Source: an uncultured bacterium
Lineage (GTDB): Bacteria > Omnitrophota > Omnitrophia > Omnitrophales > Aquincolibacteriaceae
Length of the DNA stretch: 64,000 nucleotides
Assembly: GCA_964562525.1 (NCBI GenBank)
Contig: CAZLTL010000004.1
Location: 6,171-70,170, forward strand
Direction of reading: 5' to 3'
In this document: piece after piece, positions 25,155-61,581 of the stretch
Numbering within the stretch: the first letter of the stretch is position 1
Layout of the letters: each line of letters begins with the position of its first letter
Translations under genes and position numbers: made by a program
Notes under the pieces: model-generated
Seen by the model: the letters and a program-made list of their open reading frames with translations, nothing else
What the model was told of the DNA's origin: nothing
The model's database searches: none

Positions 25155-25162
25155 GAGGATAT

Positions 25163-26197: not shown

Positions 26198-26322
26198 TAG
26201 CTCCTTGCGTTTTGTCGATGCTCTATAGGCAGTCTGTAAAAGGAGGCTTTTAAACCTATTTTGAATAGTGTAATATCTACATATCACCAATACACTTACA
26301 TCAAAAAAAGCACTATTTAGCA

Positions 26323-28321: not shown

Positions 28322-28322
28322 A

Positions 28323-28368
28323 TTTGTTAACAATAGTTGTTAACACTTTTGATGGTAAATAGCGGTAA
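28323..28368 (+). repeat. island repeat copy A (TTTGTTAACAATAGTTGTTAACACTTTTGATGGTAAATAGCGGTAA)
   Basis: Starts 2 nt after the stop of cassette gene 3, with a TATAAT at 28385-28390 downstream. Precedes the transglutaminase-like gene. Confidence 0.7.
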
Positions 28369-28397
28369 GATCTTTAGATTAGAGTATAATTCAGCTT

Positions 28398-29549: not shown

Positions 29550-29553
29550 TACG

Positions 29554-37123: not shown

Positions 37124-37188
37124 GGGCGGTATCTTAATGCATACTTTGTTTCTTGTCCCTTGTTGTTTGTAACCTTATAATTTGCGCC

Positions 37189-38655
37189 ATGAAAATTAAA
37201 GCCGGTCTTTTTATACTGGTGTTTCTACTCACTTTGGGCGGACGCATCTCGGCTGATGAAGCTTGGGAGCGCGTCCAAAAAACAGGCGAGTTGCGCTGGG
37301 GCGGCGATGCTGCGGGCGGCGCGCCTTATGTCTTTCCTGATGCTGATCAGCCCGATAGCTTGATTGGCTTTGAAATTGATTTGGTGGAAGCTCTCGCCAA
37401 GAAGCTGGGCGTGAAAGCAAAGTTTGTCAGTGTTCAATGGGATCAACTGGTGCCCGCGCTTTTGCGCGATGATTTTGACGCGGTGTTTAACGGTCTTGAA
37501 GTGACGCAGGATCGTCTTGCCGCGATTGATTTTTCGATTCCGTATTATTTCTTCTCCGAACAAATTACCGTGCGCGCTGAAAACAATGCCATTCGCACCT
37601 TCAACGATTTGCACGGCAAAAAAGTTGGCACGCTTTCGGCAACGCTGGCGCATAAGATTCTCGAAGATGATGGCAAGATCACCGCCATCGGTTATCCCTC
37701 GCCGGTGGAAGCTTACCGCGATCTTGAAATCGGTCGTCTCGATGCCGTGTTTATGGATGTTCCGATTGCGGCGTTTTATGCGGCCGGTAACCCCAAGTTA
37801 AAAAATCTTTCCGATCTTGCTGGCGAGGGGATTTACGCCGCGGGCGTGCGTAAAGATTCGCCGCAGCTGAAAATGAAAATTAACGAAGCCTTGATTCAGA
37901 TGATTCAATCGGGGGAGTTAAAGAAAATCTATCTCAAATGGAATATGTGGAATGAAAAGCAAGAGAAGCTAGCTGATCCCAAACAATGGGATGTGAAAAG
38001 AGAGCATGAAAAAAATCCCGTCTTAAAATTCGGGCGGCTTTTATTGCAGGGCGCGGGCATGACTTTGATTTTGTCTTTTCTTTCGATGGGGATTGCGGTC
38101 GTTGTCGGCTCGGCGATTTGCGCCGGTAAACTTTACGGTAATTGGTTTGTGCGCGGTTTTTGCAACGTGTATGTCGAAGTCGTGCGCGGTACACCGCTTC
38201 TGATTCAACTTTATTTGCTTTATTATGGTTTGCCGAATCTCGGCATTCAGTTACCGGCCTTTGCCGCGGCGATTTTAGGTTTAGGTTTCAATTATGCCGC
38301 CTACGAGGCTGAAATCTATCGCGCGGGGCTTTTATCTCTTCCTAAAGGACAGGAAGAGGCCGCTCGATCGCTAGGTATGACTGGCTGGCAGGCGCATCGA
38401 TTTGTATTGGTACCTCAGGCCGTGCGCACCATTTTGCCGCCTTCGACAAATGATTTTATTGCGCTGTTTAAAGATACTTCGCTGGTTTCGATTATTACCG
38501 TCATGGAACTGACACGCGCATACACAACGGCCGCGACCACGACTTACCGTTTTCTTGAACTCGGTCTCGCCACTGCGGCGCTTTATTTTTTGATGAGCTT
38601 TCCTTTGTCTTTGTGGTCACGAAAATTAGAAGGGAATTCAATAAGACATGTGTAA
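37189..38655 (+). CDS. amino-acid ABC transporter, fused periplasmic substrate-binding (family 3) and permease protein
   Basis: N-terminal SBP_bac_3-like domain (GFEIDLVEALAKKLG). C-terminal permease with the EAA-like motif EAARSLGMTGWQ. Confidence 0.8.
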   Translation: MKIKAGLFILVFLLTLGGRISADEAWERVQKTGELRWGGDAAGGAPYVFPDADQPDSLIGFEIDLVEALAKKLGVKAKFVSVQWDQLVPALLRDDFDAVFNGLEVTQDRLAAIDFSIPYYFFSEQITVRAENNAIRTFNDLHGKKVGTLSATLAHKILEDDGKITAIGYPSPVEAYRDLEIGRLDAVFMDVPIAAFYAAGNPKLKNLSDLAGEGIYAAGVRKDSPQLKMKINEALIQMIQSGELKKIYLKWNMWNEKQEKLADPKQWDVKREHEKNPVLKFGRLLLQGAGMTLILSFLSMGIAVVVGSAICAGKLYGNWFVRGFCNVYVEVVRGTPLLIQLYLLYYGLPNLGIQLPAFAAAILGLGFNYAAYEAEIYRAGLLSLPKGQEEAARSLGMTGWQAHRFVLVPQAVRTILPPSTNDFIALFKDTSLVSIITVMELTRAYTTAATTTYRFLELGLATAALYFLMSFPLSLWSRKLEGNSIRHV

Positions 38656-43115: not shown

Positions 43116-43291
43116 TTCGTCGATTGATTTCGTAACGATTAGTTATTGTAAAAAAACTTCTTCAGCCATTCGTCATCGCCTTTGATGGACACAATGGTTC
43201 GCTTAATCTGCTGCTGACAGCCCGCAATCTTGAACGAATACTTCTTTTTTGTGAAAAGCGAGCTTTTCGGAAGTTTGCGATTGGACATAGG

Positions 43292-43645
43292 CTAAGTCTC
43301 CTTTGTTTTTTGTTGGAATTGAACAGCGAAGCAGGACTGAGATTCGGAATAAGCCGGAGAAGAAATAGGGCGTTTAAATTCCGACGGAACTTCAAGTTCG
43401 AGAAGAAAAATCAAATCTAAGTCACGGATGGGCATGAGATAATCGAGACGCATCCAAAAACGGCTTTTGAGCCGAGGCGAGTAGCATTCGCCGTAACCTT
43501 CAGCGGCGCTGAGACCGAGAAACCGAAAAAAATCACCCTGAATGACTTCTTCTCCGTACTCGCCGTGCCTTTTTAAAGCAGCACATTCAACGAGTTTGAG
43601 CCAATCACCGCATTCGGGCGCTTTTTTTTGGGCCATAAACCTCAT
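43292..43645 (-). CDS. hypothetical protein
   Basis: 117 aa ORF with no recognisable motif. A 49-aa ORF (43139-43288, minus strand) follows it. Confidence 0.3.
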   Translation of the reverse strand: MRFMAQKKAPECGDWLKLVECAALKRHGEYGEEVIQGDFFRFLGLSAAEGYGECYSPRLKSRFWMRLDYLMPIRDLDLIFLLELEVPSEFKRPISSPAYSESQSCFAVQFQQKTKET

Positions 43646-44129
43646 CAGTTGAAGCGTGATGTTTTACCCATCAAAATCATCGGCGCAAATTCAAAAAAAT
43701 TGAAGTGATTTTCGTGTAAAAATCAATTTCTGTTTAAATTAAAAATCACACAGCCAACAACACTTTCCGTGCCATATTTCTTTACGAGACTGCTAACACC
43801 CGAAAAAATTCTCTAAAAACTAATTTTGACCTAAGCGCTTTTTCATTGAAGAAGAAGCTTTGGTTTAATTCGAACTTAGGAGGCGAAATAGCTTAAGCCT
43901 TTGAACTAGGGGCTAGTTTTTGGTTTTTACCAAAAAAAGGTTCAGTTTTTAGATTGGTATGACGATAGCAGTAGTAAGCTAAATAGGCTATTTTTGCTAT
44001 TAATTGATGGTTTTATATATTTGTTGATATGTTTATTGACTAATTATGTTTTTATGATACGTTTTACTTTGAAGAGCAATTTGAGAGTTTGGAAACAAAT
44101 TTAGCAACCGATAAGGAGCAGAGGAGAGC

Positions 44130-44330
44130 ATGAAAAAATTATTAGCAAAATTCAATAAATCGTTTAACAGCCAAAAAGGCCAATCGATGGTCGAGTACGC
44201 CTTGATTCTTGCCTTGATTGTAGGCGCGGCGGCTTTGATCATGAGTCCCATCGGACAATCCGTTACAGCGGCATTTCAGGGTATTATCGCAGGGTTTGCG
44301 ACTGGCGGTGGTGGTGCACCCGCGAACTAA
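44130..44330 (+). CDS. flp: Flp family type IVb pilin
   Basis: 66 aa with the prepilin motif G-QSMV-EY followed by a hydrophobic helix. Preceded by a ~480 bp AT-rich leader. Confidence 0.8.
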   Translation: MKKLLAKFNKSFNSQKGQSMVEYALILALIVGAAALIMSPIGQSVTAAFQGIIAGFATGGGGAPAN

Positions 44331-44354
44331 GCATTCTTATCAATTTCCGCTCTC

Positions 44355-44813
44355 ATGATCGGTTGGCTATTCCCTTCGCGTAAGGGGTTTCCTCGCAACC
44401 AAAAAGGGCAAGTTCTAGTTGAACTTGCCCTTTGCGGTGCGATTTATGCTTTATTGATCATGGGAACCTTTGATGCTTCGAGAGTGTTATTTCGTTTGCA
44501 TCAATTGACCCAAGTCGCGCGCGAAGGCGCCCGCATCGCAAGTATGACAGCCGGGATCGATAATGCGTCCGGTCAAGGCGTGGTTGATGGACGTATTAAT
44601 CAAATTCTGACTAAAATGAATTTGCTAAATAGTCCCGGACTTTTAGTTTCAATCACCCCGGTTGTTGTCACGTCCGACGACGGCGTTGAAACAAAGTTAG
44701 TTGAAGTTCAATTGTCGCAGAATGTGGCTAGTATTATCGGCGGCGCTTCGTTGATCCCCGGTTTGGCGAGTCAGACCATCTCGGTGACGATCGCAATGCC
44801 GCAATTTGTTTAG
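44355..44813 (+). CDS. TadE-like pseudopilin
   Basis: TadE N-terminal motif GQVLVELALCGAIYALLIMGTFDASR. Confidence 0.75.
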   Translation: MIGWLFPSRKGFPRNQKGQVLVELALCGAIYALLIMGTFDASRVLFRLHQLTQVAREGARIASMTAGIDNASGQGVVDGRINQILTKMNLLNSPGLLVSITPVVVTSDDGVETKLVEVQLSQNVASIIGGASLIPGLASQTISVTIAMPQFV

Positions 44814-44835
44814 CGGCTGAAAGCAAAAAATCAAT

Positions 44836-46413
44836 ATGTTCGGGCTTCAGATAAAACAAGGTCAAGCGGGGCAGGCTCTGATTGAAGCCGCATTAGCGCT
44901 TCCCGTATTGCTGATGTTAAGTTTTCTGATGATTGACGTGGGTACCGGTTTTTTTGTCCGAAACACCATGAACAATGTCGCACGTGATGAAGCCCGAATT
45001 TTAGCCACCGACCCAAAACTTAACCCAAATTACCGCCCTCCCGTAGGATCAACGCAAACTCCGCAGCAAGCTGTGGCTCAGGCAATCAGTGACGCTAAAA
45101 CCCGTATTACAATTCGCATCGCGCCGATTGCCGGTATGGGGAAACCACTTTCAGTAAGTAATGATGGGATTCAAATTTTGGTTCCCGGTGTTAATGGAAC
45201 CCCGGGCAATTTAACGGATAATCCCGTTGAGGTCCGGATTACGCGGCAATTGAATTTGATTTCAGCGAACTTTATACCCGACGCGGCGGCGGACCGCATT
45301 ATCAATACATCCGTTAGCGCTTCGGCTTTTGTTGAAAAAGGCACTATTTCCGGCGACATTAATCTTGTGACAGAGAATGGCAGGTCAATTACCACTGAAA
45401 CGGATTTGTGTCAGGAGGGAGAGATTTGTACTTGTGAGACAGATAAAACCCTTTGCACCCGCGAAGAACTTTGCAAGTTTTACGATAACGAAAGGGCGAA
45501 GTGCACACTTAAAGAAAGATGCGATTTCTTTGGAGAATGTGGTTGCAAGTATGATATCTCTAAGTGTAGCAATGAAGAACTTTGTGAAAAAGGGAATACT
45601 CGATCTTGCTGCGTTGCTTATGGTGGAGAAGGTGGAAATGGAAAAAAACCGAATGGCGAGCCAGCTTGTTCGGATTCTGACTATTGCTGGTATGGGACAG
45701 GAAATAAAATAAGCGATAGATGCTGTAAGGTTGCCTGGAACTATTTTTGCCCGGGAAACAATTCTTGTGAGCAATATAAATATTATTTATCTTTATTATT
45801 TCCAGACCCTCTAAAGCTAGGTGCTTACGAAAAGTACTATGTGAATTATTTTTGTTGTCCGCTAAATCCAGCTCCTGCCGAGTGTTGTGATTTCAGCACT
45901 CAGTATTGTAGTAATTCTACAAAATGCGAGAGAAGCGATATTAATGCTTGTTGCCAACTAGAACCTGGTCAGCCTGGATCAGAAAAATGTCACTGCCAAT
46001 ATGACATTAACCGCTGTAGTAGCGGTTCCGAATTTTGCCAATACTATCCGAATAGTGACCAATGTTGTCAGTTTGATCAAACGAAATGTAATGGAGAGCA
46101 GCTTTGTCGATTAAAAGGTGATCTTGCATCTTGCACAACGGATTGTTTAAAGTGCTCATATGCTTCCGCTAAGGATCCGGATGCTTGTTGCCGATGTAGG
46201 AGTGATTGGTGCAGTGATAACAATATATGCACCTATTATGATCAGAGCACTCGCTGCCGGTGTTTACCTGGGGGCGAAGGAACAACTAGCGAGTGTTGCG
46301 TGTATAGGCGGGATACGTCTTTGGCTTGCTGTCAGGCGAATATGAATCAGTGTAAGCCCGTCGATGTTTGCAGTGTGTATCCCGATCAGCCGAAATGTAA
46401 GGTTGAGGGGTAG
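44836..46413 (+). CDS. TadE-like N-terminal domain fused to a ~330 aa extremely cysteine-rich repeat domain (putative pilus-associated adhesin)
   Basis: N-terminus GQALIEAALALPVLLMLSFLMIDVGTGFFVRNTM is TadE-like. The C-terminal part has ~52 Cys with a recurring C-x5-7-C..CC pattern and internal repeats (CKYDISKCSNEELC / CQYDINRCSSGSEFC). Confidence 0.7.
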   Translation: MFGLQIKQGQAGQALIEAALALPVLLMLSFLMIDVGTGFFVRNTMNNVARDEARILATDPKLNPNYRPPVGSTQTPQQAVAQAISDAKTRITIRIAPIAGMGKPLSVSNDGIQILVPGVNGTPGNLTDNPVEVRITRQLNLISANFIPDAAADRIINTSVSASAFVEKGTISGDINLVTENGRSITTETDLCQEGEICTCETDKTLCTREELCKFYDNERAKCTLKERCDFFGECGCKYDISKCSNEELCEKGNTRSCCVAYGGEGGNGKKPNGEPACSDSDYCWYGTGNKISDRCCKVAWNYFCPGNNSCEQYKYYLSLLFPDPLKLGAYEKYYVNYFCCPLNPAPAECCDFSTQYCSNSTKCERSDINACCQLEPGQPGSEKCHCQYDINRCSSGSEFCQYYPNSDQCCQFDQTKCNGEQLCRLKGDLASCTTDCLKCSYASAKDPDACCRCRSDWCSDNNICTYYDQSTRCRCLPGGEGTTSECCVYRRDTSLACCQANMNQCKPVDVCSVYPDQPKCKVEG

Positions 46414-46446
46414 TTGTTTTTAACTGATTGAGATGAGGTTGTTTTT

Positions 46447-47226
46447 GTGAGGCTTTCTCCTAAACTTATTTTGTTTGTTGCCATGCTGAGCGCGTTCATC
46501 GCGTTTACGATGATTTTTCGTATTTTTTCAGAGCTTAAAAAAGATCCGCGAGGAATAAATGTTGTTACGGCGGTGCGGGATTTAGAAGTGGGTGAGACGA
46601 TTGAAAAATCGGATATCCAGATTCAATTGGCACCCAAAGGAACCAATATTAATTCTGTTTTTACCGAATTGGAGCAGGTTGAGGGGAAGGTCCTGCGTAA
46701 TCCCATTCGCCGCGGCGCGCTGATTCAGTCTTTTGATGTTGCCGACGAAGCAGATAGTGTTGCGGGGCTTATTCCCGAAAATTATCGCGCTTCCACGCTT
46801 AGTTTCGTGTTGCCGATAGAAACTTCCCGCCTGCTTAAATTTGGAAGACGTGTTGATATTTTATTTACGGATACCTCGACCAAAGATTTTGAGACTAAGA
46901 CGATTATGCAAAACATTCTTGTGATTAAAGCGGGCCCTTCGAAGCCGCCCGCCAAAGCGAAGCCCGGTACGGAAGAATTCAGCCCCACGATGGATGTGAC
47001 AATCGCAGTGCGCCCTGAAGGTGCCGAAATTTTAGCGTACTCGATGAAGAAGGGTAAACTCGACCTGAGTGTCCGCTCTTTAACTGAGAAGAATGCGGAT
47101 GAGGTTTACATGAATTTACGGGATGTGATGGGCGTGAAGCCTGCGCCTATTTTTATGCAGCCTGCCGCCGTTGACAATGAGGTTGAGATTTACCGCGGTG
47201 TGAAAAAAGAAAAGGTCATTGTGTGA
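46447..47226 (+). CDS. cpaB: Flp pilus assembly protein CpaB/RcpC
   Basis: N-terminal TM followed by a SAF-like domain (VVTAVRDLEVGETIEKSDI). Confidence 0.8.
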   Translation: MRLSPKLILFVAMLSAFIAFTMIFRIFSELKKDPRGINVVTAVRDLEVGETIEKSDIQIQLAPKGTNINSVFTELEQVEGKVLRNPIRRGALIQSFDVADEADSVAGLIPENYRASTLSFVLPIETSRLLKFGRRVDILFTDTSTKDFETKTIMQNILVIKAGPSKPPAKAKPGTEEFSPTMDVTIAVRPEGAEILAYSMKKGKLDLSVRSLTEKNADEVYMNLRDVMGVKPAPIFMQPAAVDNEVEIYRGVKKEKVIV

Positions 47227-48980
47227 GAAAGCTAAATTTTCTTTTCAGCGTAGCCACTCTTTTTGTTTTCAATGCGAATGTTTTGTTGAGCCAGCCCGTG
47301 ACTGAAGCCGCTCCCTCCGATCTCAATCAGTCGGATGCGGGCATGGAGCAAACAGCATCGGATACTGTTTTGAGAAATTCCGCTATGGTTGAATCGATCG
47401 GGAATGAAGATTGGCAAACAGAAAATATCGCGGGACGCAAAGACATTCATATCGTTGTCGGAAACAGTCATCTGCTTCAACTCGACCGCGCCATGACGCG
47501 CATCGCGATTTCTGATCCGGAAGTGGCTGACGCGGTTGTGGTGAATAGGCGGGAAATTTTGATCTCTTCCAAAAAACGCGGCTCTTCGAATTTGCTCGTC
47601 TGGGACCGTCAGGGAAAAATTTTTATTTATACGCTCATTATTGTCGGCGATCCCGTCGCACTTAAGTCCGCGCTAACCTCGATTTCGCCTGATAATCCCG
47701 TTGAAGTTTTTTCAACTGAAAAAGGCTATGTTGTAAGCGGAAATGTGGATACGGTCCAGGTTCAGAAGCAAATCGCGGAAACATCCAAAGCTTTTTCGGC
47801 CGATAGCATCAGCATTGTTACGGTCAATGAAGCGAAACAAATCCTGCTGGAAATTCAGGTAGTTGAAGTTGACCGCAGTAAAAACAGCGAGTTTGGAATA
47901 GACGGAGCTTATTTAGCTGAAAAATTCGGGTTCACTTTTATGCCCGGCGGATTAGGGCCTATTTCAGCGGTTGTGAATGATGCCGGCGACAGAACGGTTT
48001 TGGGAGTACCTGAGGAAGGTGTTAAAGCATTGTTTACCGGAACCTACAGTGATCCGAAAAGATCAGTCAATACGGTCATTCGTGCGCTGGAAACGCAAAG
48101 TTTGGTGAAGGTGATTTCTCGCCCCAACATTTTGGTACGTGACGGAGCTGAAGCCAAAATTTTAGTGGGTGGACAATTCCCGATTCCGCAGGTAACGCAG
48201 ACAACCACAAGCGTGACCTACAAAGAATTTGGTACAAAGTTGACTTATACACCGACAATTTTGCCGCAAGAAATGATTCGTTTCGAAATTCAAACGGAAG
48301 TGAGCGAACTCGATTCCGCTAACGGAATTCAGGCCAATGGATTTTCCTTGCCGGCGATTACAAGCCGAATCGCGAATACCACCGTTGAAATCAAGGACAA
48401 GGAAACTTTGGTTATTGGCGGCATGATTTCGCAGCGGAACACGAACATTGAATCAGGGACGCCTTATCTCAGAAAGGTGCCCTTGCTGGGCAAATTATTT
48501 AAAAATACGGACAAGCAATCAAATAATGTTGAGCTGGTCATTATGATGACGCCACATATTCTGGATTCGACCCAGCGCGGCGCAAAAATGAACGGATTGC
48601 AGGACGAGTCATTGATCAGTGAATTGAAAGAATTGCCAAGACCCCCTTTTGAAGATGAAAAAGCGCTTGCGATCGAAGAAGCTTTGATGCGATTTGAGAA
48701 CATGCCGTCGGAGAAGCCGCCCGTTGATTCCCGAGCGTATGAGCGTACGGAACTTCGCGAAAAGATAGAAGATAAAAAAAATAAAAAACGCGCTAAAAAA
48801 GAAGCCCGCATCGAGAAAAAAAGGGTTGAGCAAGCTGCTGTAACCTCACAAAAACCCTTGTTTTCAAAAAAAGATGAGATTGAAAAGATGAAAGTAGAGA
48901 CGAAAGAAAATGTCGTTAATGCTGCGGATGAAAGCAAGGTGGTCGTAAAAGACGACGTGAAATGGGAAATTCGTGGTTAA
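47223..48980 (+). CDS. cpaC: Flp pilus secretin CpaC/RcpA with a Lys/Glu-rich C-terminal extension
   Basis: Secretin domain ..ETQSLVKVISRPNILVRDGAEAKILVGGQFPIP... The C-terminal ~90 aa is K/E-rich. Confidence 0.85.
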   Translation: MRKLNFLFSVATLFVFNANVLLSQPVTEAAPSDLNQSDAGMEQTASDTVLRNSAMVESIGNEDWQTENIAGRKDIHIVVGNSHLLQLDRAMTRIAISDPEVADAVVVNRREILISSKKRGSSNLLVWDRQGKIFIYTLIIVGDPVALKSALTSISPDNPVEVFSTEKGYVVSGNVDTVQVQKQIAETSKAFSADSISIVTVNEAKQILLEIQVVEVDRSKNSEFGIDGAYLAEKFGFTFMPGGLGPISAVVNDAGDRTVLGVPEEGVKALFTGTYSDPKRSVNTVIRALETQSLVKVISRPNILVRDGAEAKILVGGQFPIPQVTQTTTSVTYKEFGTKLTYTPTILPQEMIRFEIQTEVSELDSANGIQANGFSLPAITSRIANTTVEIKDKETLVIGGMISQRNTNIESGTPYLRKVPLLGKLFKNTDKQSNNVELVIMMTPHILDSTQRGAKMNGLQDESLISELKELPRPPFEDEKALAIEEALMRFENMPSEKPPVDSRAYERTELREKIEDKKNKKRAKKEARIEKKRVEQAAVTSQKPLFSKKDEIEKMKVETKENVVNAADESKVVVKDDVKWEIRG

Positions 48981-50589
48981 GATAAGGTCTTTTCTTCATT
49001 TTAAAAATCAGCGTGGAATCGTTTTCATTTACAGCGTATTTTTTTTTATTGTCGCTATCGGGTTTGTGGCTTTGGCCGCTGATCTTGGACACGCTTATAT
49101 TGTTTCAACTGAGCTAAAATCTGTCGCGGATGCTGCGGCTTTGACCGCGGCAGCCAGTTTTTTGACTGAAATGCGACAACGGGCTGAGGCGGATGACGAT
49201 TTGACTGACGCGAGCGTCGCGGACGCGGTTAAAGCCGCGACAACAGCGGCAGCGAACGCGATTATTCAAAGGAGTCGCATGATCAGCCAAGGAGCGGTTG
49301 CTGTGAATTTGAAATTTGGAAGTTATAATACCGCCAGCAACCAAACATACAATGAGCAGACGGGAAGCTTATTTACGGAGCTTTCAACGGCGAGCTTATC
49401 GAGTATTTCTGCCTTTCAAGTTCAAGTTTCGCGTTCGGGCGGAGGTATGCCGACTATTTTTGCACGGACTTTCGGTGTTAATTTTATTTCAATGTCACGG
49501 AGTTCGGTTTCTATTTTGGCGCCGCGGAACTTTCTTATGGTGATTGATACTTCTGGCTCTATGGATGACATCACTTATGTCAGGACAACCACTATGAATG
49601 GCGATGGGACCGTCAGTCCGCCTGCCACGGTTTGGCCGCCTGAAGAGAGCTTTATCAGCAGGCCCACAGTGACCGCTAATTTTCCGATTCTATTTTCGCC
49701 GCAGGCTCCCGCAACGACAGATGCTTTTGCCAATTTTGAAGTGGTGCCGCCTGAGCCCTTGAGCGTTGTTTTGCAGTCGTCGCTTGAATTTTTAGACGGG
49801 ATTGCGGACACTTCGACGTTAGGGGATCGAGCCGGGGTTTATTATTTCGCGCGCAACACCAGTGCAAAAATCAACCAGGTGAATAATTCAATCATTCCGA
49901 TTACCACGCAAAATATTACGGATGTTTTTGAACCGCTTTTGACGAACCGTGCCCTCTACGATGGGTTGCGCCTTTTCAATAAGGCAACGGCTTTACCGAA
50001 TGGATCTTTTCTTGGCGCGGATGATTTTGCTTATGAATACCCAACGTCGGGAGCGGGAATATTTCCGTATCTTCCTGCGACCGAGCAATTTAACGGTCCC
50101 ATCGCGATTCCGCAAGGGAATACGAACATCGGCGACGCGATTAAATTTGCTTTAACTAATTTAAGTAATTCGCCGAGTAATACCACTCAGAGCATTACGA
50201 CCATTATCTTATTTACGGACGGAATGCCGGATTGCGCTCCGACAGCTCCCGGTGCGCCGGTTAAGTGCTATGGAACGGGCGCGACGGCTGACGAGCTGGA
50301 GGCTGCGCGGAATTATGTTTTTCAGCAAGCGCAAATAGCTATTGATAAAAATATTCGCATTTATCCGATTACTTACGGCAACTTTGGTTATGATGGTTCC
50401 GATCCAGACTCCGATGAGGCTGCGGAGGCCGCGAAAGCGACGCTGCTTTTTGACGCCATTGCGCAAATGTCCGGATTAACGGAACATTTTCATATCGCCA
50501 ACACCGCGAATCCTGACGAGATCGATGCCGAGTTGGACGACATTTTTGAGCAAATCAAATTATTGGTCCCGTTTTCTTTGGTGGGATAG
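48973..50589 (+). CDS. TadG-like pilus assembly protein with a vWA domain
   Basis: N-terminal TadG-type TM/pseudopilin-like segment. MIDAS motif DTSGSMDD. Confidence 0.7.
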   Translation: MVKIRSFLHFKNQRGIVFIYSVFFFIVAIGFVALAADLGHAYIVSTELKSVADAAALTAAASFLTEMRQRAEADDDLTDASVADAVKAATTAAANAIIQRSRMISQGAVAVNLKFGSYNTASNQTYNEQTGSLFTELSTASLSSISAFQVQVSRSGGGMPTIFARTFGVNFISMSRSSVSILAPRNFLMVIDTSGSMDDITYVRTTTMNGDGTVSPPATVWPPEESFISRPTVTANFPILFSPQAPATTDAFANFEVVPPEPLSVVLQSSLEFLDGIADTSTLGDRAGVYYFARNTSAKINQVNNSIIPITTQNITDVFEPLLTNRALYDGLRLFNKATALPNGSFLGADDFAYEYPTSGAGIFPYLPATEQFNGPIAIPQGNTNIGDAIKFALTNLSNSPSNTTQSITTIILFTDGMPDCAPTAPGAPVKCYGTGATADELEAARNYVFQQAQIAIDKNIRIYPITYGNFGYDGSDPDSDEAAEAAKATLLFDAIAQMSGLTEHFHIANTANPDEIDAELDDIFEQIKLLVPFSLVG

Positions 50590-50596
50590 AGGAAAG

Positions 50597-51814
50597 ATGG
50601 AAAACTATAAATTAAAGATTGCGATGCTTTTTCCCGCGGATGATAGCTTTCATTTTTTGGAGGCATTTTTCCGCAAGCATCCCGATTTGAGTTGCACCAT
50701 TGAACGCTGTCCGCTTGACATTTCACCTGAGCAGATTTTCTTGCGTCACGCGCCGCAAATGGTCGTCGCCGATTTGGTTAATCTTTCCGATGAGGAGCAG
50801 TTCCAGCTCAAAGATAAATTTAAAAAGATAAGTGAAGTCGTTCCTCTGGTCGGACTTATGGATGAAAAACTTAAGAGCCGCGCGCTTGAATACGTTAAAA
50901 TCGGAATGCGTGATTTTATACAAGTTCCGTTTGATGAAGATGATCTTGTTCAGGTTATAGCTCGTTTTCGTCAGGGCGCCCTGCCTTCGGCATTGAGAAA
51001 AACCGGCAAAGCCTATACGTTTCTGAACTTTAAAGGCGGCGTGGGAAATACTTTTTTAGCCGTGAATACCGCTGTGACTTTGGCGCGGATGTCGCAAAAA
51101 AAAGTACTTTTGTGGGATATGGCGCTTCAGTCCGGAGATATCCCGTTTTTTCTCAATTGCAATCCCAAGTTTTCGTTGGTTGAGATTATTCAAAACTTGG
51201 ATCAAGTGGATGAAAGCTATCTAAAAGGAGTTTTACCTCCGACAGAACACGGAGTTTCAATTTTGCCCGCTCCGCGCAGAATTGAAGACATGGACCAGTT
51301 GACGCCGCAAAGCGTAGAAAAGGCTCTGCATATCTTTTTGGGCTATTTTGACCACATTATTATTGACGGCGGCAACCGTTTAAGTGATCCGCTGATGCCG
51401 ATTATTGACGGTTCATGTCATGTTTTCTTGACCAGCACCTTGGAGCTAATCGCGCTGCGCGGTGCGTCGCGCTGCATCGGACTTCTGGAGCAATTGCGTT
51501 GTTCGCCTGAAAAAATTAAAGTTGTCGTAAACCGCTTTAATTCGAAATATGAAGCGATCTCTAAAGAAAAAGCGGAAGAAATTTTAAAGTATGAAATCGC
51601 TCATTTTTTCAGCAATGATTATTCCGGCGTGTGCCAAAGCGTTAATTTAGGACAAGCGGTGATTGATGCTGCGCCGGGTTCGCCGCTGAATCAACAGTTT
51701 AAAGCTTTTGTTAAAAAAATACTCAATCACTTTGTCGAAGAAAAAAACAGCAACAATTTTTTTGCGGGCTTAAACAAAGTGTTTAAAAAAGGGTCGTCCC
51801 ATGTCGCTGGCTGA
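50597..51814 (+). CDS. cpaE: CpaE/TadZ ParA-MinD-like ATPase with an N-terminal receiver-like domain
   Basis: Deviant Walker A FLNFKGGVGNTFLA. GAGGAAAG RBS before the Met at 50597. Confidence 0.8.
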   Translation: MENYKLKIAMLFPADDSFHFLEAFFRKHPDLSCTIERCPLDISPEQIFLRHAPQMVVADLVNLSDEEQFQLKDKFKKISEVVPLVGLMDEKLKSRALEYVKIGMRDFIQVPFDEDDLVQVIARFRQGALPSALRKTGKAYTFLNFKGGVGNTFLAVNTAVTLARMSQKKVLLWDMALQSGDIPFFLNCNPKFSLVEIIQNLDQVDESYLKGVLPPTEHGVSILPAPRRIEDMDQLTPQSVEKALHIFLGYFDHIIIDGGNRLSDPLMPIIDGSCHVFLTSTLELIALRGASRCIGLLEQLRCSPEKIKVVVNRFNSKYEAISKEKAEEILKYEIAHFFSNDYSGVCQSVNLGQAVIDAAPGSPLNQQFKAFVKKILNHFVEEKNSNNFFAGLNKVFKKGSSHVAG

Positions 51815-53114
51815 TCGTATCCGCCAAAACGCGCCGATCGGTAAATCTCCGCTGGCTTCTTCGTCTCCCGAATCTTCGATTCAAAACTCAGCTTTCCAAA
51901 GTCTCAAGTTTCGAATGCACCAAAAGCTGATTGAAAGGCTTGATTTGGAAGTCATCAGCCGCCTGTCTCCGGAAGAGGCGCATAATCAAGTAACCGAGTT
52001 TGTTAAAAAACTGGTTATGGAAGAAAAAGTTGCGTTAAACGCGGAACAGCAGCAAGGCTTGATCAAGGAAATCGTTGATGAGACTTTTGGTTTGGGACCG
52101 CTTGAGCCTTTGCTGGCAAAGCCGACGGTGGATGAAATTCTTGTCAATGGTTCTCAGCGGATTTTTGTGGAAGAGTTTGGAAAACTAATTTTGACAAACG
52201 TGAAATTTCGCGATGACGCGCATTTGCGGAACGTGATTAACCGTATTGTTGCCAGCGTGGGGCGTCGTATTGATGAGGCTTCACCCATGGTGGACGCGCG
52301 TCTTCCCGATGGATCGCGTGTTAACGCAATTATTCCGCCGCTTGCTTTGAATGGACCGGTGCTTTCCATTCGTCGATTTAAAAAAGACCCATTGAAAGTT
52401 CATGATCTTGTCCGTTCCGGCTCGATGAATGAAAAAATGGCGGAGTATTTGCAGCTGGCCGTCGAGAATAAACTTAATATCCTAATTTCCGGCGGAACGG
52501 GAACGGGAAAAACTACCTTATTGAACGTTGTTTCTGCGTTTATTCCAAGCGGGGAGCGCATCATTACGATTGAGGACGCGGCGGAACTTCAGCTTCAGCA
52601 GCCGCATGTCGTTCGTCTTGAAACTCGCCCCGCCAACGCGGAGGGGAAAGGGCAGGTTCTCCAGCGTGATCTTTTGCGTAACTCTTTGCGTATGCGTCCG
52701 GACCGCATTGTGATCGGTGAAGTTCGCGGCGCGGAAGCGCTGGACATGTTGCAAGCCATGAATACGGGCCATGAAGGATCGCTGACAACGGTGCATTCCA
52801 ATTCGCCCCGTGACGCACTAAGTAGAATTGAGACCATGGTTTTGCTTGGAAATTCCAATTTGACACATGTTTCAATCATCCGTCAAATTGCTTCCGCTCT
52901 GCATTTAATTGTTCAAATTAAGCGGTACGCGGACGGCAGCCGAAAGATATCGACGATATCCGAGGTTACGGGCATGGAAGGGGATGTGATCAGTCTTCAG
53001 GATATTGTTCAATTTGAAGAGAAGGGTGTTGATGATCGAGGTAAAGTTGTGGGACAGTTTACTTTTTCGGCTTTAAAGCCAAGGTTTTTGAACAAGGCTC
53101 ATAAACAGCACTAA
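51801..53114 (+). CDS. cpaF: CpaF/TadA type II/IV secretion ATPase
   Basis: Walker [10 protein letters not shown] and Asp/His boxes. Confidence 0.9.
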
Positions 53115-53123
53115 GTCGCTTCC

Positions 53124-54092
53124 ATGAATACTCTTTTCATTGCGGCTTTATTTTTAGCGATCGCGGCCTTCCTCTTTATTTATTTTTTCTTGGACAAAAC
53201 CGCTGGCGATTCTGCTTTTCGTGAAGCTCGTTTGAATGCCCGCCTTGCTGAGATGACAAGGAAAAACACCGAAAGCGTTGAGAAAAAAAATCGCTATAGC
53301 GATATCCGCGCGTTGAATCGGATTTTAATGCGGCAAGCTTTTGTCACTCGGCTCAATCGAATGCTGCAGGTGAGCGGGTGGGGCATTTCGATGGGTGTTT
53401 TTATTCTGGGGTCCTTGCTCGGGGCGTTTTTGGCTTTTGGCTTCCTTTACAAGGCGGGCATCACACCTTGGGTCGCTGCCCCTGCCGCTGCCATCATGCT
53501 TTGGTTTATCCCAACCGCAATTCTTAAATACAGATATAACCTCTATCTGGACTTATTTAGCCAGCGTTTTCCCGCCGCGCTTCAAATTATTCACGGAGCG
53601 ATCGGTGTTGGATTTGGTTTGTCGCAAGCGTTATCGAGAGTTGCCAAGGACGCCCCCCATCCCGTGAATAAAGAGTTCGCGGGAATTCTTGCCGAAATTC
53701 AACTTGGTGAAAATTTAATCAACGCGCTTTCTAATCTTTATAAAAGAATTCCAACTTCAGATGTTAAAACATTCGTGATCGCAATCTCAATTCAGCATGA
53801 TTCCGGCGGGAACCTTTCCGAGTTGATCGGTAATCTTGAGAAAACAATCAACGCCAGGGTGCTATTACGCAAAGAATTAAGCGCTCTCACCGCGCAGGCC
53901 AAGATGAGCGGTAAAGTTTTAGTCGCGATTCCTTTTTGTTTAGCCGCGATACTTTATTTAATCAACCCTGAGTATTTAAAGCCGCTTTTCGAAGAAGAGA
54001 TGGGCCGCAAAGTGATCATGTACACTTTAGCTCAAATCGTGATTGGCACGCTTGTGATTCGGAAAATGGTCAATATGAAATTGACGGTCTAA
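53124..54092 (+). CDS. tadB: TadB (T2SS-F family inner-membrane platform protein)
   Basis: T2SSF-like domain with TM pattern. Confidence 0.85.
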   Translation: MNTLFIAALFLAIAAFLFIYFFLDKTAGDSAFREARLNARLAEMTRKNTESVEKKNRYSDIRALNRILMRQAFVTRLNRMLQVSGWGISMGVFILGSLLGAFLAFGFLYKAGITPWVAAPAAAIMLWFIPTAILKYRYNLYLDLFSQRFPAALQIIHGAIGVGFGLSQALSRVAKDAPHPVNKEFAGILAEIQLGENLINALSNLYKRIPTSDVKTFVIAISIQHDSGGNLSELIGNLEKTINARVLLRKELSALTAQAKMSGKVLVAIPFCLAAILYLINPEYLKPLFEEEMGRKVIMYTLAQIVIGTLVIRKMVNMKLTV

Positions 54093-54096
54093 AGGC

Positions 54097-54897
54097 ATGC
54101 ATCTTTTTTTTATCGCCTCAGTTATGTTGAGTGTCGCTCTTGGCTCCGGAATATGGGCTTGGTTGACGATCTATGAGCAAAGCCGGCGTATGAAAAAGCG
54201 CATGGCGGAACTTTCCGCGCAGGAAAATCTTCAAGAGCGCACCGTGAAGCTTGAAAAGCCGACCCCCAAGAACTACAGCTTTGAAAATTTAATTTTTCTT
54301 TTTGGACCTACGGGGCTTGCTATCGCTTGGCAGCAGGTGGTACCCGGACCTGTCGTGCCCAAATTGATGATTGCGATCGCAGTTTCCGTGTTTTTGAAAA
54401 TTATTTGGAAGAGACATCAAATCAACCGTTATCGAATCCGGATTGAAGAAGCATTGCCCACAACTTTGGATCTTCTGGTGGTTTGTATTGAGGCTGGTAT
54501 GTCGCTGGCATCGGCGTTGGTTCGGGTTGCCGAAGAAACTAGGGGGGGACCGCTCTCGGATGAGCTTAAGAAAACTTTTTATGAAATGAACGTTGGGCTT
54601 TCCATGGAGCAGGCTTTCCGCAATCTTGCGGTGCGTACGAATGTTGTGGACGTTGGGTCGCTTGTGACAACGATTATTGAAGCCGAACAAATTGGGATGA
54701 AGCTTGGAGAAACTTTGCGCAGCCACTCCGCCATGCTAAGGGAGACGATCCGTATGCGGACGCGTGAAAAGATTTTAAAGATTCCTGTTAAAGTGTTGTT
54801 TCCGCTGGTTTTCTTTTTTATGCCCGCAATTTTTTCGATTGTTCTGGCTCCTGCGGTTATTAAACTGATACCTGTATTTCAAAGTATGGGGAAATAA
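54097..54897 (+). CDS. tadC: TadC (T2SS-F family inner-membrane platform protein)
   Basis: T2SSF-like domain. Follows tadB. Confidence 0.85.
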   Translation: MHLFFIASVMLSVALGSGIWAWLTIYEQSRRMKKRMAELSAQENLQERTVKLEKPTPKNYSFENLIFLFGPTGLAIAWQQVVPGPVVPKLMIAIAVSVFLKIIWKRHQINRYRIRIEEALPTTLDLLVVCIEAGMSLASALVRVAEETRGGPLSDELKKTFYEMNVGLSMEQAFRNLAVRTNVVDVGSLVTTIIEAEQIGMKLGETLRSHSAMLRETIRMRTREKILKIPVKVLFPLVFFFMPAIFSIVLAPAVIKLIPVFQSMGK

Positions 54898-54898
54898 T

Positions 54899-55240
54899 AT
54901 GAAATTGATTTCCGATCGGACAAAAAATGTTTTAGTCCAAGATTTAAAAGTTGCCGATAAGCCCTGGTCGCGTATTCAGGGACTTCTTTTTAAGCCTATG
55001 CTTTCGCCTGAGCAAGGGCTCGCGCTTATTCCGTGTAATTCCATTCACTCTCTGGGGATGCGTTATTCAATGGATGTGATTTATTTAGATAAGAAAAACA
55101 AAGTGCTTAAATGCACGCATGATTTTCGTCCCAATTCTCTGGGGCCGCTCGTATGGAAGGCGAAGACGGTTATTGAGATGCCCGCTGGAAAACTTCGCGG
55201 CTTAGATGTTCAAGTCGGGGATCAACTGACTTACGCTTAA
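54899..55240 (+). CDS. DUF192 family protein
   Basis: 113 aa with ..GLLF..L..GLALIPCNSIHSLGMRYSMDVIYLD pattern. Starts 2 nt after the tadC stop. Confidence 0.65.
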   Translation: MKLISDRTKNVLVQDLKVADKPWSRIQGLLFKPMLSPEQGLALIPCNSIHSLGMRYSMDVIYLDKKNKVLKCTHDFRPNSLGPLVWKAKTVIEMPAGKLRGLDVQVGDQLTYA

Positions 55241-58732: not shown

Positions 58733-59327
58733 GCGAAAATTATATAAGTGTTCATGGTGTTGGCAAATTGTCGCATTCGCCGTGTTTTTTGGCTACAGCG
58801 GATTAGCCGGAGCAGACGGGTATGAAACAAATGCGGCTTCGAAAGGCGAGGTCCGTTTTGAGACGTCATCCACTTTACATGGCGTGGAAGGCCATGCCGA
58901 GGAGTGGAGCGGTAAAGTTGAATTTAATCCCCTGACAGGGCAAGCCGTGGTGCCCTTTGAAATTCGCGTGCCTATTCGCTCGCTGAGTACTTCTCATAAA
59001 GCGAGAGATAAGGCCATGCTTAAAATGTTTGAAGATAAAAAGTTTCCGGATGCTGTTTGGAAAGTGGAGTCTTGGTCTTGCCTGGATTATAAGGCTGAAA
59101 AGGGAGGCCAATGCCACGCGACGGGAACACTCAGTATGCATGGGAATAGCATTGCGAATGAAGCTGATGTGATGCTTCAGCTGACTTCTGACGGATTTGA
59201 GGCTAAAACCGCTTTTGATTTAACGACCAATTCATTCGGCTTAAAACCGCCCTCGGTTTTGGGCGTGATTCGGGTTGCCAAGCTGGTCAAAGTTTTTGTT
59301 CAAACACAATGGAAGAAAACTGCGTGA
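58731..59327 (+). CDS. YceI-like domain protein (secreted)
   Basis: Signal peptide. ..VRFETSSTLHGVEGHAEEWSGKV.. fits the YceI family. The start is uncertain because it abuts the divergent kinase start. Confidence 0.6.
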   Translation: MRKLYKCSWCWQIVAFAVFFGYSGLAGADGYETNAASKGEVRFETSSTLHGVEGHAEEWSGKVEFNPLTGQAVVPFEIRVPIRSLSTSHKARDKAMLKMFEDKKFPDAVWKVESWSCLDYKAEKGGQCHATGTLSMHGNSIANEADVMLQLTSDGFEAKTAFDLTTNSFGLKPPSVLGVIRVAKLVKVFVQTQWKKTA

Positions 59328-60493
59328 AAAATTCTTTTCCGGCATTACAAAACGGTGATGTGTGGGACGCGATTGTGATCGGTGCCGGAATTGCCGGAGG
59401 CGTGACTGCGCTCCAATTGGGCGACGCGGGCTGGCGTGTTTTACTGGTTGAAAAAACGTCTTTTCCGCGCGAGAAAGTTTGCGGCGGATTCATGGGGCCA
59501 GAGAACAGTGAGTTGCTCAAAACAACGGGCATTTGGGAAAAACTTAAAAAAACAGATCTGATTCCGCTTGAACAAATGTGGCTGACCTCGCCGCGGGGTG
59601 CGTCCGTGCGCATGGGATTTCCTCAAGCTTCAGGACCCGGACTCGCGGTTTGCCGTAAAAATTTGGATGCGGCCATTGTGGAATGCGCTCAAGAGCGTGG
59701 CGTTGTGTTTGCCGCTCCCGCACATGCGGAACAGGCCGCGCCCGGCGTTTATATGATTCACTCTCCGCATCAGGCGGAACCCGTTAAAGTTTTCGCGCGG
59801 CATGTGATTGATGCGCGCGGCGGAGCTGCTTTGAAAGAAGCTGCGACTGTGGGTTTTGGAATGGCGGCCTACTTTGAAGGTGTGCGGTGGATGAAAAATC
59901 GCGTCATTTTGCATTTTGCCAATGACGGGCATTTTGGCTTGGATCCCGTTTTGGGAGACCGCGTCACCGGCTGCTTCGTTGCGACACAAGCCATGCTGGA
60001 TCGTGTCGGAAAGAATCCGCAAAAATTATTTGAAGATTTTTGTGCGCAAAACCGTTTTTTGGCTTCGCAAATGAAAAGGGCAAAGCAAGTTTCAAGTTGG
60101 CAGGGGATCCCGCTGAAGCTTTCAAGTAAGCCCGTTTTTTTTGAGAAAGGCGTGTTCCGGGTTGGGGATGCGGTTGCGACCGTGGATCCGGTGGTCGGCG
60201 GAGGCATGACTTTGGCTTTGCAAGGAGCTTCTATGCTCGCGGAGTCGCTTTTAGAGTACGATGTTAACCGTGTGGATGAGGTTCGGGCAGCGCGCGCTTA
60301 TGCGCGAAGATGGAATCAGTCGTTTGGTTGGAAGCTGCCTGTCTCCCATCTTTGGGGACGAGTGGGGCATCATCCTTTTTTTACGGAAGGAATGCTGCGG
60401 CTTATAAGTATGCAGAGAAATCTTTTAAAAAAATTATTTGAGTGGCATCACTCCGCGTTACCGGCGGTAAAAAAATTAGAAGGGGTCGCATGA
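59309..60493 (+). CDS. FAD-dependent oxidoreductase (geranylgeranyl-reductase / flavin monooxygenase-like)
   Basis: GAGIAGGVTALQLGDAGWRVLLVEK FAD-binding motif. Confidence 0.8.
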   Translation: MEENCVKNSFPALQNGDVWDAIVIGAGIAGGVTALQLGDAGWRVLLVEKTSFPREKVCGGFMGPENSELLKTTGIWEKLKKTDLIPLEQMWLTSPRGASVRMGFPQASGPGLAVCRKNLDAAIVECAQERGVVFAAPAHAEQAAPGVYMIHSPHQAEPVKVFARHVIDARGGAALKEAATVGFGMAAYFEGVRWMKNRVILHFANDGHFGLDPVLGDRVTGCFVATQAMLDRVGKNPQKLFEDFCAQNRFLASQMKRAKQVSSWQGIPLKLSSKPVFFEKGVFRVGDAVATVDPVVGGGMTLALQGASMLAESLLEYDVNRVDEVRAARAYARRWNQSFGWKLPVSHLWGRVGHHPFFTEGMLRLISMQRNLLKKLFEWHHSALPAVKKLEGVA

Positions 60494-61581
60494 AAGAAAG
60501 TCATTGGATTGCGGTTGAAACCGCGTTGCCTCAAATGAAGGTGACGCAAAAGGATGCTTGGCTTTGTGCTCAGGGAAGGCCCGGAACGGACGCGAAAACT
60601 CAGAGTTGGTATAAGCGCTTTTTACATGACCCCGGAATTGAAACACGCCATTTTGCGCTTGAGAATTTGGCTCAGGTTTATTTTGAATCACCGGATGAGT
60701 CGCACGCGCGCTTTCAAAAAGAAGCCGTGAGGTTGGGCGCGGAAGCTTTATTGAAGTCGCTTAAATCAGCCGGTCTTAAACCGCAAGATTTGGACGCGCT
60801 TGTGACGACCACGTGCACAGGCTATCTTTGTCCGGGTTTAAGTTCTTACATTGCCGAAGCGGCAGGTTTGCGCGCGGATATTCATGCCGTTGATTTAGCG
60901 GGAACGGGCTGCGGCGCGGCAATTCCCGCGCTTCGCAACGCGGATCATTTTTTGAAAAACAGCCCGGAATCGTTTGCCGCGGTTTTGTGCGTTGAAGTTT
61001 GTTCGGCCGCGATTGATTGGGGCAGTGAAATTGATTTAATTCTATCGAACGCGATTTTTGCGGACGGCGCGGCTTGCGCTGTTTTAACGAATCATCCCTC
61101 CCGTAAAGGATTGCTCCAACATGGATTTGATTCCATTCTCTGGCCGGAATACCGCGAGCATTTACGGTTTAAAACACGGAACAGCCGTTTATCGAATGTG
61201 ATTCATCCAGAAGTACCAAAAATTGCTGCACGAGCGGTGCAGTCTTTGGCTTCAAAAATAACCGCGCAATCCGAAAAAGATTTTCAGACATTTGCGGTTC
61301 ATCCCGGTGGGCGCAAAGTGTTGGATGCGGTGGAAGACGCGGTGCCGGCGATGAAAGACAAACTGGAAGCTTCCCGAGCGGTTTTAAAGCGCTGCGGCAA
61401 TATGTCTTCACCCAGCGTGCTGTTTGTGATGCGTGAATTATTGGATACCGGACGGATTTTAAAAAATGAAAAAACCATGCTGTTTGCTTTCGGCGCCGGC
61501 TTTACCGCCTTCGCGAGCTCCGTTCAAGCTGTTGAATTGCCGATTTCTTTGCGGACAGCGCAGAAAGAGGTTCTCGTATGA
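60490..61581 (+). CDS. type III polyketide synthase (chalcone/stilbene synthase family)
   Basis: Active-site Cys in TTCTGYLCPG. His in FAVHPGGRKVLD. Asn in GNMSSPSVLFV. Confidence 0.85.
   Translation: MKESHWIAVETALPQMKVTQKDAWLCAQGRPGTDAKTQSWYKRFLHDPGIETRHFALENLAQVYFESPDESHARFQKEAVRLGAEALLKSLKSAGLKPQDLDALVTTTCTGYLCPGLSSYIAEAAGLRADIHAVDLAGTGCGAAIPALRNADHFLKNSPESFAAVLCVEVCSAAIDWGSEIDLILSNAIFADGAACAVLTNHPSRKGLLQHGFDSILWPEYREHLRFKTRNSRLSNVIHPEVPKIAARAVQSLASKITAQSEKDFQTFAVHPGGRKVLDAVEDAVPAMKDKLEASRAVLKRCGNMSSPSVLFVMRELLDTGRILKNEKTMLFAFGAGFTAFASSVQAVELPISLRTAQKEVLV

Follow-up and report, generated by a model that had tools for sequence, protein, structure and literature searches.

A TadE-type minor pilin with a variable C-terminal cysteine-repeat domain in the Tad locus of a probable member of Candidatus Omnitrophota

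The closest described counterparts of the system considered here are the Tips of the Tad-like Kil machinery of Myxococcus xanthus, complexes of the minor pilins KilL, KilM and KilN, similar to TadE, TadF and TadG, for which a role in priming and at the tip has been shown genetically (Herrou et al. 2025, Nat Commun, PMC12075869). Some of these subunits have extra C-terminal regions, many intramolecular disulfides are predicted in them, and variable domains have been proposed to lie at the pilus extremity and to set target specificity. The stretch analysed here, referred to as the window, is 64 kb of contig CAZLTL010000004.1 from an uncultured bacterium, probably a member of Candidatus Omnitrophota, and it contains a Tad locus in which one gene (44836-46413) encodes a TadE-type pilin with a cysteine-repeat domain at its C-terminus. 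As in the Kil system, a TadE/TadF/TadG-like set is encoded together with the Tad machine, one operon holding a trio of minor pilins made up of a short TadE-like protein (TadE1, 152 aa), the protein under study (525 aa) and a TadG-like protein (538 aa), and both systems belong to predatory or suspected predatory bacteria. The Kil distal variable domain has a mixed α/β structure and is carried by the large TadG-like KilN, whereas here the TadE-motif pilin carries a tandem array of two-cysteine units that is 16% cysteine (the extra domains are compared by description only), and one tip set is present instead of four paralogous sets. A preliminary description of the window, made from the DNA letters and their translations, had considered a module of this type undescribed for Tad systems, which needs qualifying, as modular disulfide-rich Tad tip pilins have been published by Herrou et al. 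In a study that did not analyse minor pilins, Seymour et al. (PMC10066038) connected Tad complexes in Omnitrophota with a predatory or parasitic way of life; the protein is likewise not mentioned in a 2026 preprint on complete genomes of this phylum.

Canonical TadE and TadF (PF07811) of the Aggregatibacter actinomycetemcomitans type share with this protein the TadE motif, a leader with Gly at -1 and Glu at +5, and a place in a tad operon beside flp. They are about 150-200 aa long and lack a repeat domain, whereas this protein adds 340 residues with 52 cysteines. A set of 80 Tad loci from many phyla, retrieved with TadA at ≤60% identity, was used for comparison. The lengths of its open reading frames (ORFs) with a TadE motif are bimodal: the median of 150 aa from the start of the motif agrees with the 150-200 aa given as normal in the preliminary description, but a quarter of them, which are TadG-like, exceed about 370 aa. 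The cysteine maximum in these loci is 13 residues, or 2.3%, against 10% of the whole length in the window protein. Large size is ordinary for a Tad minor pilin; the cysteine-repeat domain is not. The grafting of an extra domain onto a pilin module at the filament tip is also known from Streptococcus sanguinis PilB (VWA) and PilC (lectin) and from TadG (VWA) (PMC12075869). The domains of those proteins are known adhesion folds, whereas the cysteine-repeat domain has no detectable relative in Pfam, in PDB sequences or in the fold libraries searched.

The gene is real and under purifying selection. A sample that was assembled separately (L002) contains an identical copy, and three other samples yield full-length homologues that are 534, 534 and 543 aa long and 49-60% identical. 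The window protein and these three homologues, all recovered by a whole-protein search, are called P0001 to P0004, and P0002 is encoded on contig L003. One close homologue is on a 34.5-kb contig (L001) with the operon order unchanged. A more distant relative was found through RcpC, the product of the gene directly downstream: a search with RcpC returned eight clusters, the closest named one coming from a Candidatus Omnitrophota metagenome-assembled genome with contigs L086 (362 kb) and L087 (278 kb), again with the operon order unchanged. The equivalent gene of L086 (8230-9951) encodes 573 residues (BLASTP E=4e-73; Pfam TadE E=1e-7, 32.3 bits), and its product keeps both the junction between pilin and cysteine domain (LC..ICTC.TD..LCT.EELC) and the C-terminal cap (C..ELC.VYPD..CK.EG-stop). 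The cap is recognisable in distant members as well, for example as CSQEELCIVYPDDDSCKFEG and LCRVHPEDPTCAIEG. In the window, L001 and L086 the gene order is the same, flp-tadE-this gene-rcpC-rcpA-tadG-tadZ-tadA-tadB-tadC-short ORF, and in both relatives with the whole locus on one contig the gene sits between flp/tadE and rcpC. Three short contigs from other samples (L091, L092 and L093) carry the 3′ end of a cysteine-repeat gene directly upstream of RcpC, which brings the total to all seven of the RcpC clusters with readable upstream DNA. Conservation across related Tad loci, a check proposed in the preliminary description, is thereby borne out, and the fusion of a TadE pilin to a cysteine-rich domain is kept in every relative found. 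The ratio of nonsynonymous to synonymous substitution (dN/dS) in the cysteine core is about 0.06 (P0002 against P0003).

The N-terminus was recognised from the start as TadE-type, and Pfam TadE (PF07811) matches residues 12-54 with E=1.2e-10 (41.8 bits against a cutoff of 22.9). It reads MFGLQIKQGQAG followed by QALIEAALALPVLLMLSFLMI, that is, a short basic leader with Gly at -1, then Glu at +5 and the hydrophobic helix α1; a hydropathy scan finds residues 14-36 to be the sole strongly hydrophobic segment of the protein. The motif G↓Qxx(V/I)E, the arrow marking the predicted cut, is common to this protein, Flp (G↓QSMVEY) and TadE1 (G↓QVLVE) and to the relatives L001 and L086, and removal of the leader by a prepilin peptidase is predicted from it. 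The sole NCBIfam match of the whole protein is a sub-threshold one to the TadE_Rv3655c subfamily (NF041390; 14.8 bits, E=0.031, cutoff 40 bits), and assignment to the TadG type fails, with PF13400 at 13.5 bits against a cutoff of 22.3 and no VWA domain in Pfam. The pilin module is 96, 78 and 73% identical to those of the close homologues and 54% to that of L086, with dN/dS of 0.03-0.11. Its identity to L086 lies within the range of RcpA, RcpC, TadB, TadC and TadZ (52-58%), below TadA (75%) and above TadE1, TadG and Flp. AlphaFold gives this part of the protein a long α1 (12-57) and four strands (110-172) with a predicted local distance difference test score (pLDDT) of 35-70.

All 52 cysteines are confined to residues 192-521, where they make up 15.8% of the residues (about 1 in 6.3) and form nine CC doublets, in agreement with the preliminary count of about 52, one residue in six, with CC doublets. 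Gaps of 5, 6 and 8 residues predominate; the 51 gaps between successive cysteines include five C-x-C and one C-x-x-C, and histidine is nearly missing (1 of 340 residues). The array is irregular, being broken by cysteine-free loops of 18 and 28 residues, and its clearest module, C-x6-C-x5-C-x8-C(C), spans about 23 residues and occurs in seven copies. A hidden Markov model of these seven modules finds four or five copies at ≥8 bits in each of the three homologues and none in 800 composition-preserving shuffles, and when the two halves of the domain are aligned locally with each other, the score stands at z=5.5 against shuffles. The internal repeats proposed earlier are thus confirmed, and the two peptide strings quoted for them are present at residues 233-259 and 383-411.

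The repeat is much clearer in the L086 homologue, whose central part repeats a 13-residue unit about 27 times almost perfectly, the cysteine gaps alternating 5, 6, 5, 6. The unit consensus is C-T-Q-(E/D)-Q-x-C-(R/Q)-(L/Y/I)-(N/Y)-(H/N)-(T/S)-G, with Gln at position 5 in 29 of 29 units, a hydrophobic residue at position 9 in 29 of 29 and Gly at position 13 in 19 of 29. At the DNA level this array contains tandem repeats of 39, 78, 234 and 273 nt, and none of that kind was found in the window gene. The window protein follows the 13-residue C-x5-C period only in part, whereas the L086 array observes it strictly. Since the relative has a regular 13-residue array, the 23-residue module of the window protein is read as two degenerate two-cysteine units of about 13 residues, which replaces the disulfide knot of the preliminary description. 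The invariant Gln and hydrophobic positions of each unit suggest that the units are stacked in a solenoid-like manner.

Several features argue that the domain is disulfide-bonded. It follows a membrane-anchored, exported N-terminus; it has an even number of cysteines in each of the five proteins (52, 54, 54, 56 and 60); and 45 cysteine columns are invariant while non-cysteine identity in the domain goes down to 32-42%. The variable cysteine columns are mostly gained or lost as local pairs or groups, the remainder being one-residue shifts or a compensating substitution, and the count stays even, which is the pattern that sequence-local disulfide partners would produce. The low GC content attributed to this region is also seen, with 42.7% in the cysteine part against 48.1% overall. 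At third codon positions (GC3) the value is 0.365 in the cysteine domain, 0.454 in the N-terminal module and 0.508 ± 0.024 in 16 other genes of the window. Recent import was considered as the reason and dropped: the drop in GC3 recurs in all five homologues and therefore belongs to the domain.

Within the locus this protein is the least conserved product. Compared with L001, identity is 88% for TadA, 81% for RcpA, 79% for TadZ, 79% for TadC, 77% for TadB and 74% for RcpC; among the pilins it is 65% for TadE1, 63% for Flp, 59% for the TadG-like protein and 49% for the protein under study. The TadG-like pilin is the second fastest-evolving product (59% to L001, 47% to L086). Because this pilin, with only 2 Cys, is also large and fast-evolving, the putative tip would carry two different large modules.

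The variation of the cysteine-repeat pilin is concentrated between two fixed ends. Compared with its closest relative, P0002, the N-terminal module is 96% identical in amino acids and the cysteine domain 51%. At the DNA level, blastn against L003 gives collinear blocks at 44352-45473 (86.7%) and 46312-46486 (93.7%), and the 838 bp between them have no similarity detectable by blastn, with which sliding windows agree. The proportion of synonymous differences (pS) is 0.82 in the core, where it is saturated, 0.44 in the N-terminal module and 0.28 in the tail. The trees of the domains conflict: the N-terminal module joins P0001 with P0002, and the core joins P0002 with P0003 (81% identity), leaving P0001 as far away as P0004. 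Whole modules are present in one allele and missing in another. This is most simply read as recombination that replaces a cassette, or as fast turnover of the repeats, with the conserved junction and cap as anchors.

A constant N-terminal part with an exchangeable C-terminal part is also the design of PilV of IncI-type plasmids (for example TP114, PMC9045228), whose exchangeable part sets partner specificity and is switched by site-specific inversion of cassettes stored beside the gene, the shufflon. A shufflon was considered here and rejected: silent cassettes were found neither in the 64-kb window nor in 21.6 kb of L001 DNA, there are no meaningful inverted repeats around the gene, and no recombinase is adjacent, the nearest integrase being 19 kb off in a separate island. 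The variation is therefore between strains and, unlike that of PilV, not within a genome.

Taken together, these features make it reasonably probable, in our judgement, that the protein is a modular minor pilin of a Tad (Flp, type IVc) pilus with a disulfide-braced repeat domain at the tip that contacts a host, prey or other surface. The pilus-tip module suggested in the preliminary description is upheld in part. The location at the tip is argued by analogy with the described systems, and the fold of the domain and its role in contact or adhesion are likewise proposed. A mechanism can be outlined on this basis. A prepilin peptidase would remove the 12-residue leader at the G↓QxxxE site shared with Flp and TadE1, after which α1 and the pilin module of about 170 residues would form a bundle together with TadE1 and the TadG-like pilin. 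This bundle would prime polymerisation and come to lie at the distal tip, on the analogy of TadE/F/G and the Kil Tips of Myxococcus. The 340-residue C-terminal domain would be exported to the oxidising periplasm and beyond, where its 52 cysteines could form about 26 mostly sequence-local disulfides and give a rigid, protease-resistant array ending in the conserved cap. As an extension of the pilin, the array would be the part in contact with the outside world, be it the envelope of a host or prey or another surface. Between close relatives the middle of the array differs through replacement or reshuffling with both ends kept fixed, and fixed ends with a changing middle are the pattern expected of a surface that determines specificity or is exposed to immunity or phage.

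Several points weigh against a disulfide-braced tip pilin. The Kil/Tad tip models place the distal variable domain on TadG/KilN and not on a TadE-like subunit (PMC12075869), and the locus of the window also encodes a TadG-like pilin. Neither an A24 prepilin peptidase nor Dsb genes were recognised among the window ORFs scanned. The AlphaFold models, which take up the structure prediction recommended in the preliminary description, have low confidence (full length, pLDDT 57.5 and predicted template modelling score, pTM, 0.26; domain, 66.6 and 0.36); they resolve the pilin head poorly and render the cysteine domain as short helices that match no fold. The apparent cassette replacement could in part be positional homology lost through repeat turnover, and not a foreign allele. 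The large searches missed known members, so that the spread of the family is under-sampled.

The fixed place of the gene directly upstream of rcpC, and an N-terminal module about as conserved as most of the machinery, would also suit a TadE-anchored periplasmic or inner-membrane part that is not on the pilus, with the cysteine domain serving as spacer, ruler, plug or sensor. The adhesin at the tip could then in reality be the TadG-like pilin, in keeping with the published models. We hold this to be unlikely: among the products of the locus, a part internal to the machine should not be the one that varies most, nor should it swap a cassette between close relatives, and a leader with Gly at -1 and Glu at +5, as in Flp and TadE1, points to handling as a pilin.

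A narrow disulfide-braced β-solenoid like the beetle antifreeze proteins, with a flat face that binds ice, mineral or polysaccharide, would be compatible with display at the tip. TmAFP (1EZG; TCTxSxNCxxAx) is a right-handed β-helix of 12-residue coils, each with one disulfide (C2-C8), and the Dendroides isoforms accept extra residues (PMC8038014). It resembles the present arrays in its repeats of 12-13 residues, C-x5-C spacing, about 16% cysteine and varying repeat number. The strict 13-residue C-x5-C-x6 period of the regular relatives, with its invariant Gln and hydrophobic positions and frequent Gly, is the ladder-like conservation typical of solenoids. We consider such a fold rather improbable even so. 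The small inward residues Ser5 and Ala11 and the TCT face of TmAFP are unmatched, E/D/L and N/Y/H standing at those places; neither Pfam nor PDB yields a sequence match; AlphaFold proposes short helices at low confidence; and the array of the window is irregular, with its cysteine-free loops. After the comparison of core residues failed, TmAFP was kept as an analogy in repeat arithmetic only.

A bolder version of the tip pilin, to which we give little credence as yet, can also be stated. In it, the 13-residue units would stack as a thin disulfide-braced solenoid spike, about 5-13 nm long depending on unit number, on the tip of a retractile Tad pilus of ultra-small, host-dependent Omnitrophota. 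Spike and cap would recognise, and perhaps breach, the envelope of host or prey, and exchange or expansion of the array between strains would set host range. If true, the protein fold would be new, and the spike would stand for a novel class of organelle at the pilus tip, confined to a candidate phylum.

A cysteine density of 16% with CC doublets also brings to mind metallothionein-like thiolate binding of metal or mineral, or a redox buffer, with which the cell might capture or detoxify metal or attach itself to metal sulfide surfaces. Anoxic, metal-rich habitats are common for Omnitrophota, some of which encode metal-reducing cytochromes (PMC10066038), and the thiols could remain free if the envelope were reducing. 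This explanation seems very unlikely, and the metal-binding option of the preliminary description accordingly finds weak support: C-x5-C, C-x6-C and C-x8-C prevail over the few C-x-C and C-x-x-C motifs, unlike in metallothionein clusters; neither a Pfam metallothionein nor any other match was found at E≤10; even cysteine counts and parity-preserving changes fit disulfide partners; histidine is almost absent; and the domain follows an export and anchor signal, while the metallothionein-like class expects a reducing compartment. Finally, a false fusion made by frameshift, chimeric assembly or contamination, at which the far lower GC3 of the cysteine part and its lack of a known domain match might hint, is effectively refuted, since the same fusion, junction, cap and operon position recur in at least five independent assemblies from different samples, it is under purifying selection, the low GC3 is common to all homologues, and the events named in advance as fatal to the fusion (a frameshift, split ORFs in relatives, a match to a known cysteine-rich domain) were looked for and not found.

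Nothing in Pfam matches the cysteine domain at E≤10; neither the family profile nor the regular L086 array finds a sequence match in PDB; fold-library searches with the predicted models give no match; and tblastn against plasmid and phage records finds none. Apart from the query, the search with the whole protein among 5.8 billion proteins retrieved three homologues and nothing else, which is an undercount: the 573-aa protein of L086 is absent from that collection, although phmmer would give it E=5e-55 at that size. The profile of the cysteine domain, searched against 1.84 billion representatives, retrieved its own cluster only, a weak null because composition correction hides divergent arrays; in a local test, HMMER left 22.9 bits after 124 bits of bias. 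Scans of genome and metagenome contigs with the family alignment gave no useful match, the peptide patterns being too specific (L086: IDAGHSLT, TINNIARD). The 573-aa protein, though a called gene, is also missing from a 15-billion-protein collection, and several short contigs (L088-L093 ends) stop inside cysteine-repeat arrays. The apparent rarity of the family is therefore misleading, and assembly breaks at repeats, together with catalogue gaps, probably hide many members. The family spans no less than one Omnitrophota clade with RcpC identity ≥52%. The origin of the window fits this placement: the best named relatives of UvrB (19222-21282), at 70-72% identity, are almost all Candidatus Omnitrophota, and the gene for an ADP-forming acetyl-CoA synthetase that adjoins the Tad locus fits reports for some Omnitrophia. 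The features of the gene and of the operon around it are listed in Table 1.

Table 1. Parts of the cysteine-repeat pilin gene and of the surrounding Tad operon (window coordinates; arrow, predicted cut)
Feature	Position	Strand	Remarks
TadE-type minor pilin with C-terminal cysteine-repeat domain, whole gene	44836..46413	+	Intact ORF, 525 aa plus stop
Predicted class-III (prepilin) leader MFGLQIKQGQAG	44836..44871	+	Cleavage predicted after Gly12 from G↓Q-A-L-I-E, Glu at +5
Conserved pilin module, mature residues 13-185: hydrophobic α1 helix with TadE motif, then head region	44872..45390	+	
Cysteine-repeat domain, residues 186-525	45391..46410	+	52 Cys, seven clear C-x6-C-x5-C-x8-C modules
Hypervariable cassette, about codons 214-492	45474..46311	+	blastn against L003
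Conserved C-terminal cap ...CCQANMNQCKPVDVCSVYPDQPKCKVEG	46312..46410	+	Near-identical in P0002 and P0003
Flp major pilin	44130..44330	+	Pfam Flp_Fap E=2e-5, under gathering score; G↓QSMVEY
TadE1, short TadE-like minor pilin	44355..44813	+	152 aa, 1 Cys; Pfam TadE E=3e-10
RcpC/CpaB	46447..47226	+	Pfam RcpC and SAF
RcpA/CpaC secretin	47223..48980	+	Pfam Secretin E=3e-44
TadG-like large minor pilin	48973..50589	+	538 aa, 2 Cys; Pfam Tad (PF13400) 31 bits; VWA match just under cutoff
TadZ	50525-51814	+	TadZ-TadC block: Pfam CbiA/AAA_31, T2SSE, T2SSF x2
TadA ATPase	51801-53114	+	
TadB	53124-54092	+	
TadC	54097-54897	+	
113-aa ORF closing the locus	54899..55240	+	Putative DUF192, from position and length only

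Some further details of the operon deserve mention. The L086 orthologue of the TadG-like pilin matches VWA with E=5e-6, and the place of the window's 113-aa ORF is taken by a DUF192 gene in L001 (117 aa) and L086 (113 aa). A gene for a TadV/CpaA-type prepilin peptidase was not found in or beside the Tad operon in the window (43116-55240), L001 or L086; Bdellovibrio tad loci have been reported without TadV inside them (bioRxiv 10.64898/2026.07.08.737194). As called, the short TadE-like pilin of L086 (7625-8203) has a leader of about 40 residues with a CC doublet before G↓QVLVE, and its true start may lie further downstream. At the 3′ side of the cysteine-repeat gene, a 19-nt direct repeat (TTGAGGGGTAGTTGTTTTT / TTGAGATGAGGTTGTTTTT) at 46403-46446 spans the stop codon and reaches exactly to the GTG with which rcpC starts, and in three comparisons among P0001-P0003 the last 35 or so codons have pS of 0.28-0.47 against 0.44-0.72 in the N-terminal module. 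The repeat and the low pS of the tail hint at constraint on the nucleotides themselves, for example through translational coupling or as an anchor for recombination. Scans for promoters and terminators gave sites no more frequent than chance.

Outside the Tad locus, GC content falls to 35-40%, against a window mean of 46%, after a tRNA-Met gene (21439-21515), in a stretch that contains an HNH endonuclease ORF (21630-22460), a tyrosine recombinase/phage integrase (25163-26197) and several ORFs without a Pfam match; the whole region (21439-30054) looks like an integrated mobile element or genomic island. At 59309-62345, genes for an FAD-dependent monooxygenase, a type III polyketide synthase and a UbiE/COQ5-type methyltransferase, then DUF2490, suggest synthesis of an alkylresorcinol- or alkylpyrone-like lipid. 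In L001 (6809-8245), Pfam identifies a periplasmic amino-acid-binding domain (SBP_bac_3) fused to an ABC permease (BPD_transp_1), with an ATPase gene adjoining. The 500-aa ORF of the window at 37153-38655 is presumably the same fusion, judging from its size and position; the distance from the ATPase gene to flp, which lies downstream of it, is 0.3 kb in L001 and 4.6 kb in the window.

Omnitrophota are widespread, uncultured and suspected to be predators or parasites, and Tad pili are a main genomic argument for this view (PMC10066038). Short-read assemblies break on these genes and composition correction hides the arrays, so that the family is probably under-counted in catalogues. The regular arrays of the relatives may represent a new disulfide-rich repeat fold. 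The modular Tad tip idea (PMC12075869) would be extended by this protein to a new phylum, a new carrier of TadE type instead of TadG type, and a new module, the tandem two-cysteine array. As the most variable product of the Tad operon, with a domain that has no detectable relative, it is a concrete candidate for the determinant of contact with host or prey in these bacteria.

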